Positions 8,024-8,880 of a DNA stretch of 64,000 nt are shown here, one piece after another; position 1 is the stretch's first letter, and the number at the start of each line of letters is the position of its first letter. Both the position numbers and the translations under genes were made by a program. The notes beneath the pieces are model-generated. The model was not told the DNA's origin. It ran no database searches and was given only the letters and a program-made list of their open reading frames with translations. The stretch is from Escherichia coli (lineage in GTDB: Bacteria; Pseudomonadota; Gammaproteobacteria; Enterobacterales; Enterobacteriaceae). The stretch lies in assembly GCF_044324785.1 (NCBI RefSeq), contig NZ_CP172127.1; one strand, given 5' to 3'.

Positions 8024-8639
8024 ACCTTACCTAAGCAATACAATGTTCAATAATATAACTATGCTCTAATAAATTTTTACAGGTGTTTAAAGAAATAATC
8101 ACACGTATTCTTATCTTTGCAATCTAATCTAATTTTAAATAAAGGTCAATATCTTATTTTTTGATATAAGTTTTCTTAAATACCACGATATAAAAACATT
8201 TTATTTAAGTGATTTCTTTTAGTTTGTTTTTCAAATAAAAGGGATGTACTCATGACATTTTAAATATGTACATCATGCACAGCAATATTATAGTTTTTAT
8301 CTGATTACTGAGAAGCATCTATCAATAGAACAATGTTTTTTAGTTTGTATAGGGAAGAGTTGGGTTGAATTGAGAATAAAAACTAGAGATTACTGGGGAA
8401 GGAACTTTTCAAATCCGAAATCATGGTCTACAATGAAAAAATGATGTTCTAAGTATTCCTATCATGAATAAGAATGCACCATATTTTGAATAGTATAATT
8501 TTATATTTATATATCCTTTACTGTACGATGATGATATTTTATACCTGAATGACAAGGGTGTTATTTTATACCACATATAAATTTGCAGAAAATATAAAAT
8601 GAGAAGCACTGAATAATCGCGGCTTCTGGCTATGATTTA

Positions 8640-8880
<241 letters not shown>

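Follow-up and report, generated by a model that had tools for sequence, protein, structure and literature searches.

The AT-rich DNA directly upstream of amiC in the Escherichia coli stretch analysed here (64 kb in total, referred to as the window) is non-coding, unique and acquired. The amiC gene that it precedes is intact. This gene is a second copy and is itself island cargo, not the housekeeping gene. We consider it highly probable that the AT-rich DNA is the non-coding 5' flank of a 2.1-kb foreign module, which carries the island amiC, is bounded by insertion sequences (IS) and resides in an IS-scrambled island, with the housekeeping amiC-argA locus untouched elsewhere. The features of this region are collected in Table 1.

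Table 1. Features of the module with the island amiC and of its surroundings (window coordinates).
Feature	Position	Strand	Basis
Degraded IS3-family element, left boundary (integrase-core pseudogene and its end)	5912-6639	+	RefSeq; similarity to plasmids
Short unique AT-rich flank on the 3' side of the island amiC, ~71% A+T	6640-6763		Composition
Island-borne second amiC, 419 aa, mosaic	6764-8023	-	NF038267; Pfam
Foreign-type 3' end of amiC, gene nt ~1173-1260	6764-6851	-	Informative sites; identity
E. coli-type core of amiC, gene nt ~61-1172	6852-7963	-	Identity; informative sites
Foreign-type 5' end of amiC, first ~20 codons, of which the first 9 are unlike canonical AmiC	7964-8023	-	Informative sites; start of K-12 homology
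AT-rich 5' flank of the island amiC, presumed promoter and leader	8024-8727		Composition; no coding content; unique to 57 of 5426 genomes
IS3-family transposase fragment, right boundary	8728-8886	-	RefSeq, partial IS3-family transposase at 8727-8870
IS110-family transposase pseudogene, internal stop	8887-9963	-	RefSeq; split ORFs 8887-9312 and 9415-9963

The AT-rich flank and its module

A first-pass annotation had described the DNA upstream of amiC as roughly 75% A+T. This agrees with the measured value, which is 73.4% at positions 8024-8640 (228 T, 225 A, 88 G and 76 C) and thus well above the 50.9% mean of the window. The span of 617 bp with the highest A+T content in the window is 8052-8668 (74.2%), and the runner-up span reaches 66.9%. 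Unique AT-rich sequence extends past position 8640 to approximately 8727, and the stretch 8024-8727 (704 bp) has 72.4% A+T. Its GC skew is positive at 8201-8500, unlike in the adjoining parts.

The AT-rich 617 bp occur in 57 of 5426 complete E. coli genomes. They are present once in each, on the chromosome, at more than 99% identity, and are never annotated. They are absent from the other 5369 genomes, including K-12. In the 57 carriers they are always accompanied by the island copy of amiC, and the whole arrangement (query 6600-8900) is likewise restricted to 57 of the 5426 genomes. The spread is thus patchy, and the setting is mobile, a pheV island with IS fragments on both sides. The proposal that the AT-rich DNA was horizontally acquired is supported by its absence from 5369 of 5426 genomes, its lack of resemblance to the canonical amiC-argA spacer and its location in an IS-rich island. 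As to whether the same DNA stands upstream of amiC in reference genomes, K-12 does not have it; 57 genomes have the stretch, and 57 have both IS junctions.

The unique module comprises positions ~6640-8727 (2088 bp) and consists of an AT-rich flank of 124 bp, the amiC copy and the AT-rich flank of 704 bp. IS fragments bound it on both sides. Those beyond the AT-rich DNA, which had been noticed earlier, are of the IS3 and IS110 families according to the RefSeq annotation of identical DNA. On the left side, the same annotation has a frameshifted "integrase core domain-containing protein" with an internal stop (5912-6620), and the similarity to IS3-family elements of plasmids stops at ~6635-6640. 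The short flank at 6640-6763 has no homology to the K-12 DNA downstream of amiC. On the right side, positions 8728-8900 match many plasmids at ~97%, where they adjoin ISEc21-type IS110 elements. As this junction of an IS3-family and an IS110-family (ISEc21-like) element recurs at ~97% on many enterobacterial plasmids, the IS-in-IS composite should be older than its arrival in the island.

In 57 genomes, the module has both of its IS junctions. Only 5 of 2088 columns are variable among the 13 module copies compared, and all known copies are more than 99.9% identical. The module was therefore IS-bounded before the island version spread, and this spread was recent. For the same reason (the near-identity of the copies), conservation is uninformative on any constraint of the flank. 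Among the variable features, position 8316 is C in the window and T in all 12 other copies compared, and the T-run at position 8293 differs in length by one base among copies.

The flank is devoid of recognizable coding content. There are 14-23 stop codons per frame at positions 8001-8730, and the longest ORF within the stretch has 62 aa of low complexity. The six-frame translations have no Pfam match at E-values up to 1, and neither RefSeq nor the assembly collection has a gene call in the flank. A search with the covariance models of Rfam 15 gave no match in the region 6500-8900 at E-values up to 1, and both halves of the flank fold no better than shuffled sequences (z = -0.75 and -0.85). 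With neither an Rfam match nor folding above shuffle level, a known non-coding or cis-regulatory RNA was rejected as an interpretation. The repeats in the flank are weak inverted matches of 14-15 nt at chance level, and it has neither terminal inverted repeats nor meaningful direct repeats. An insertion sequence, a MITE or another transposable element was also rejected, given the lack of terminal repeats, the single copy per genome and the lack of a Pfam match to a transposase. No homologs of the flank were found outside the 57 genomes in the databases searched.

A second amiC copy in a pheV island

The amiC gene adjacent to the flank had been described as intact, which is correct. The 419-aa ORF scores 792.6 bits against the NCBIfam model NF038267 (cut-off 700) and covers model positions 2-407 of 407. 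The domains PF11741 (AMIN) and PF01520 (Amidase_3) are recorded for exactly this protein, and the twin-arginine signal motif is kept. The PGAP annotation of every carrier lists it as amiC.

In K-12, argA and amiC are divergent and separated by a spacer of 231 bp, so that argA was correctly given as the neighbor of amiC. The genes metZWV and mltA are on the other side of amiC. The amiC gene in the window does not have this set of features of the housekeeping locus (single copy, divergent from argA, beside metZWV/mltA). An identity of at least 99% to the core of this gene (6850-7990) was found in 57 genomes only; all others have one amiC gene at 90-97%. In 5425 genomes, 5483 places with amiC were found, with a maximum of two per genome and with two places explicit for NZ_CP033635.1. 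These counts are compatible with two amiC loci in every carrier.

The situation is illustrated by the genome of XDL (NZ_CP043033.1). Its canonical locus is intact (recB-recD-argA<>amiC ... metZWV-mltA), with argA<>amiC at 1196203-1199019, and the island copy of amiC is found at 1001951-1003210, which is 196 kb from the canonical pair. The island, of the classical pheV-associated type of extraintestinal and avian pathogenic E. coli, has ~150 kb and lies between the kps capsule cluster and the tRNA-Phe gene beside yqgA (pheV). Its cargo includes a dnd/dpt system, iucABCD-iutA, sitABCD, sodC, amiC, iha and a gene of the PhoX family, together with remnants of conjugative elements, integrase fragments and dozens of IS pseudogenes. 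An island at metV, beside the canonical amiC, was also considered and was rejected on the basis of this location at pheV, 196 kb away.

Positions 1-29965 of the window are collinear with the island of XDL. They are also collinear with the island of strain 1517k, and iha is located further to the left in XDL and 1517k. The first 30 kb of the window contain IS21/IS66/IS100 debris, a pseudogene for a group II intron reverse transcriptase, sodC and sitABCD (26121-29591). The remainder (30000-64000) diverges from XDL and has other accessory genes, among them a ROK-family regulator and an ABC transporter (30.5-36.6 kb), a LysR regulator (41.1-42.2 kb), an FdrA/carbamate-kinase cluster (43.9-49.5 kb) and a YadA-like adhesin (53.4-54.7 kb). 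The 64-kb window has no tRNA genes.

The replacement of argA by AT-rich DNA, as proposed in the first-pass annotation, did not hold. Since the amiC copy of the window is a second one inside an island and the canonical pair is intact in XDL, argA was not replaced. A related proposal, an altered promoter context of amiC, holds for the island copy, which has a wholly different context, but not for the canonical argA<>amiC pair, which is untouched in XDL. In carriers, an amiC gene beside IS debris and AT-rich DNA is thus an extra island copy rather than a disrupted housekeeping locus, and a synteny-based inference of a lost argA or of an altered amiC promoter would be wrong.

The mosaic gene and the search for a donor

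From identities and informative sites, the island amiC can be recognized as a recombinant, which has the ends of a rare non-E. coli AmiC lineage and an E. coli-type interior of ~1.1 kb. The lineage is represented by P0042 (417 aa), a protein encoded on contig DAGCYQ010000186.1 of an assembly labelled Klebsiella pneumoniae (GCA_022047005.1). In a protein search, P0042 proved to be a singleton without close relatives. The N-terminal end of the island AmiC resembles that of P0042 (MLTSNNVISRRR) and not the canonical one (MSGSNTAISRRR). The same applies to the C-terminal end, which is FSDVEALARKV in P0042 and FADGATLARRG in canonical AmiC.

The core of the island gene has 95.5-96.7% nucleotide identity to the canonical amiC of other E. 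coli. Homology to K-12 is ~96% from the codons for ISRRR to approximately codon 380. It ends sharply upstream of codon 9 and decays to ~70% in the last 25-30 codons, and the flanks cannot be aligned to K-12. The 3' end of the island gene has 68-83% identity to K-12 vs 87-93% to the P0042 type. We used 163 informative sites, defined as positions where the P0042-type gene departs from a state shared by two canonical E. coli alleles. Of these, 123 are of the E. coli state in the island gene, and this state predominates, with few exceptions, at gene nt 61-1172. The P0042 state was found at 31 sites, concentrated at both ends of the gene. At the 5' end, these are the informative sites at nt 13-26 and 60. 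From nt 1173 to the stop codon there are 23 informative sites, with the P0042 state at 19, the E. coli state at one and neither state at three. A small patch of the P0042 type is found at nt 837-867.

Over 370 codons (gene nt 31-1140), the island gene and K-12 differ by 41 synonymous and 3 non-synonymous changes (dS 0.18, dN/dS 0.02), and the only differing residues in the core are Q61, P203 and L337. The core is under purifying selection, as indicated by this dN/dS ratio. For comparison, dS is 0.13 between the canonical alleles of K-12 and XDL, and ~0.66 when the P0042-type gene is compared with either the island gene or K-12.

The mosaic is most simply explained by a foreign amiC paralog, carried on mobile DNA, in which the interior was exchanged for that of an Escherichia amiC, either by two crossovers within the gene or by gene conversion. 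This would have left the paralog's own ends, and hence its own flanks, in place. That the AT-rich flanks share their origin with the foreign gene ends is inferred from their position, which is the sole basis given that the contig encoding P0042 starts at the ATG. More than ~15 nt past the stop codon, the downstream sequences of the island gene and of the P0042-type contig are unlike each other when compared by eye.

The island AmiC and P0042 have the N-terminal pattern ML.SN..VISRRR and the C-terminal pattern FSD[IV][DE]ALARK in common, and both are encoded in accessory DNA. They differ in that the core of the P0042-type gene has ~86% nucleotide identity to both the island gene and the K-12 gene. 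The P0042 contig has 5088 nt (1-5088) and begins exactly at the P0042 start codon. Downstream are a gene with a colicin-M domain, a YebF-like (immunity-like) gene, an IS3-family element and a DUF4376 gene. These neighbors suggest another mobile context.

The donor of the AT-rich flanks was not found in the plasmid, phage, GTDB-representative, JGI-metagenome or protein searches. A BLAST search with the AT-rich stretch gave no match in 72,556 plasmid records or 50,697 phage records, and with the P0042 contig only canonical amiC and the IS3 element were matched among plasmids. The GTDB representative genomes match neither the exact DNA pattern of the tail nor the degenerate pattern K[EA]YFSD[IV][DE]ALARK. 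The JGI metagenomes have no match to the degenerate tail pattern and no exact match to one 25-mer from the AT-rich stretch. Full-length protein searches with the island AmiC and P0042 returned only canonical enterobacterial AmiCs in addition to the singleton P0042, and a protein search with the 41-aa tail of the island AmiC returned only one E. coli fragment of 44 aa.

Competing explanations and known systems

In the reading that we prefer, the AT-rich DNA most likely has no function beyond supplying the island amiC with a promoter and a ribosome-binding site. Upstream of the ATG is a putative ribosome-binding site (AGGTAAGG), and the amiC strand has sigma-70-like sites, for example TTGACC-17-TAGATT (8149-8121) and TTCTCA-16-TATAAT (8314-8287). 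Promoter prediction, as envisaged in the first-pass annotation, thus gave candidate sites, but promoter-like sites are not enriched (10 in the stretch vs 6.0 +/- 2.5 in shuffled sequences), and none is a demonstrated promoter.

AT-rich acquired DNA is the kind of DNA that is bound and silenced by H-NS (xenogeneic silencing). With ~73% A+T inside acquired DNA, the flank is probably coated by H-NS. Expression of the island amiC copy under laboratory conditions would then likely be weak. The high-affinity motif of H-NS (TCGATAAATT) is absent from the stretch at up to one mismatch, which neither proves nor excludes binding.

A match to the CpxR box (TTAAACACCTGTAAA) is located at 8076-8090 on the minus strand, 53-67 nt upstream of the ATG, with one mismatch to GTAAA-N5-GTAAA. 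A passage in PMC6231687, citing Weatherspoon-Griffin 2011, states that CpxRA activates amiA and amiC in Salmonella. Both observations would fit a stretch with a function in its own right, encoding a small protein or an sRNA or serving in dedicated regulation (e.g., a CpxR-responsive promoter). CpxR-box matches are, however, common in AT-rich DNA, with 85 in the window at up to two mismatches and six within the flank (8024-8727), so that this single match to the consensus may serve as a lead at most. As neither an Rfam match nor a stable fold was found and the longest ORF is a low-complexity one of 62 aa, we regard an own functional element as very unlikely.

The surroundings of the module, with their pseudogenes and IS debris, and the positive GC skew at 8201-8500 would be in line with a decayed gene, for example a neighbor of amiC in the donor lineage that has eroded past recognition. 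Against this stand the stop codons in every frame, the lack of a Pfam match even at permissive E-values, the lack of an annotated gene and the lack of a DNA match in plasmids or phages, and we consider a gene remnant unlikely. Unlikely, too, is a diverged and expanded amiC-argA spacer captured from another enterobacterium, with relics of the argA operator. The stretch was compared with canonical spacers by MAFFT, by Smith-Waterman alignment with dinucleotide shuffles and by an nhmmer profile of three canonical spacers. The spacers of K-12, Salmonella and Klebsiella share long conserved blocks (control score 90 vs a shuffle mean of 19), whereas the scores of the island flank against canonical spacers fall into the range of the shuffles, apart from one match of 35 nt, and the flank has no significant similarity to them; its proximal 260 nt also stay within the shuffle range. 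Some similarity remains in the region of the ribosome-binding site (TTGCTTAGGTAAGGTATG vs TTGCTCGGGAGAGGCATG). In addition, 28 of 35 positions at 8466-8500 agree with the tandem ARG boxes in the argA operators of Salmonella and K-12. For Salmonella, none of 300 shuffles scored as high as this 35-nt match in the Smith-Waterman test, but it is marginal for K-12, where 12 of 300 shuffles reach its score. With a distance of 445-480 nt from the ATG instead of 185-215 nt, the match is not collinear, and it is not reported by the nhmmer profile. Thus, it is probably due to chance and was not accepted as a real operator relic. Beyond it, there is no ArgA-like coding remnant. The best nhmmer match of the spacer profile is at 4253-4327 on the plus strand (E = 0.053), inside an IS110-family transposase pseudogene, and includes TGAATATGGAAAGAATGTTTACC vs TGAATATAAAAAGAATGTTTACC.

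It could also be argued that foreign AT-rich DNA and IS elements were inserted beside the housekeeping amiC, displacing argA and changing the promoter of a sole amiC gene. After all, argA is the neighbor of amiC in K-12, and neither argA nor the canonical spacer is found beside the window copy. Yet carriers have two amiC loci, and the intact argA<>amiC pair 196 kb away refutes this explanation for XDL. Moreover, the copy resides in the pheV island, its core differs by 3.3-4.5% from every canonical allele, and its ends are foreign. Overall, such a displacement is extremely improbable.

It is tempting to speculate that the island amiC and its AT-rich leader form a separately regulated unit, a Tat-exported septal amidase that is silenced by H-NS, is switched on in the host or upon envelope stress, and aids cell separation or tolerance to antimicrobial peptides in carriers. 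We consider this doubtful. If true, the carrier lineages among extraintestinal and avian pathogenic E. coli would gain extra capacity for cell separation or tolerance to antimicrobial peptides. The E. coli-type core, obtained by gene conversion, would keep the protein compatible with the divisome and the NlpD activator, and the foreign ends and flanks would provide independent control.

Returning to the 5' flank of the island amiC, the AT-rich stretch is ordinary mobile-DNA debris, typical of acquired intergenic DNA, and matters little by itself. The gene is an accessory paralog that lies between AT-rich flanks in a pathogenicity island, and the sole mildly unusual aspect is its mosaic structure. 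This is a clean case in which an allele of the core genome has replaced the inner part of an island paralog, with retention of the foreign ends and the AT-rich flanks.

The flank resembles acquired DNA that is silenced by H-NS with respect to composition (~73% A+T vs a background of 51%), patchy spread and island location, and differs by the absence of the high-affinity motif. With canonical AmiC (b2817, adjacent to argA, b2818, and downstream of metZWV), the island AmiC shares the family, the Tat motif and the AMIN and Amidase_3 domains, and differs by three amino acids over the 370 core codons compared. The two are distinct in the first 9 and the last ~30 codons and in their genomic neighborhood (argA/metZWV vs the pheV island), and their flanks have no sequence in common. 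The amiC cargo may set the XDL region apart from the known pheV-tRNA islands. Literature searches for an island-borne amiC (pheV, sitABCD, iha, aerobactin) gave hits in reference lists only and no description of it, and the island version occurs in 57 of 5426 complete genomes. If the copy were expressed in the host, a peptidoglycan amidase would join the list of pheV island cargo. In its place, its cargo and its IS debris, the XDL region is otherwise like the pheV-tRNA islands of extraintestinal pathogenic E. coli (aerobactin, sit, iha, kps-linked).
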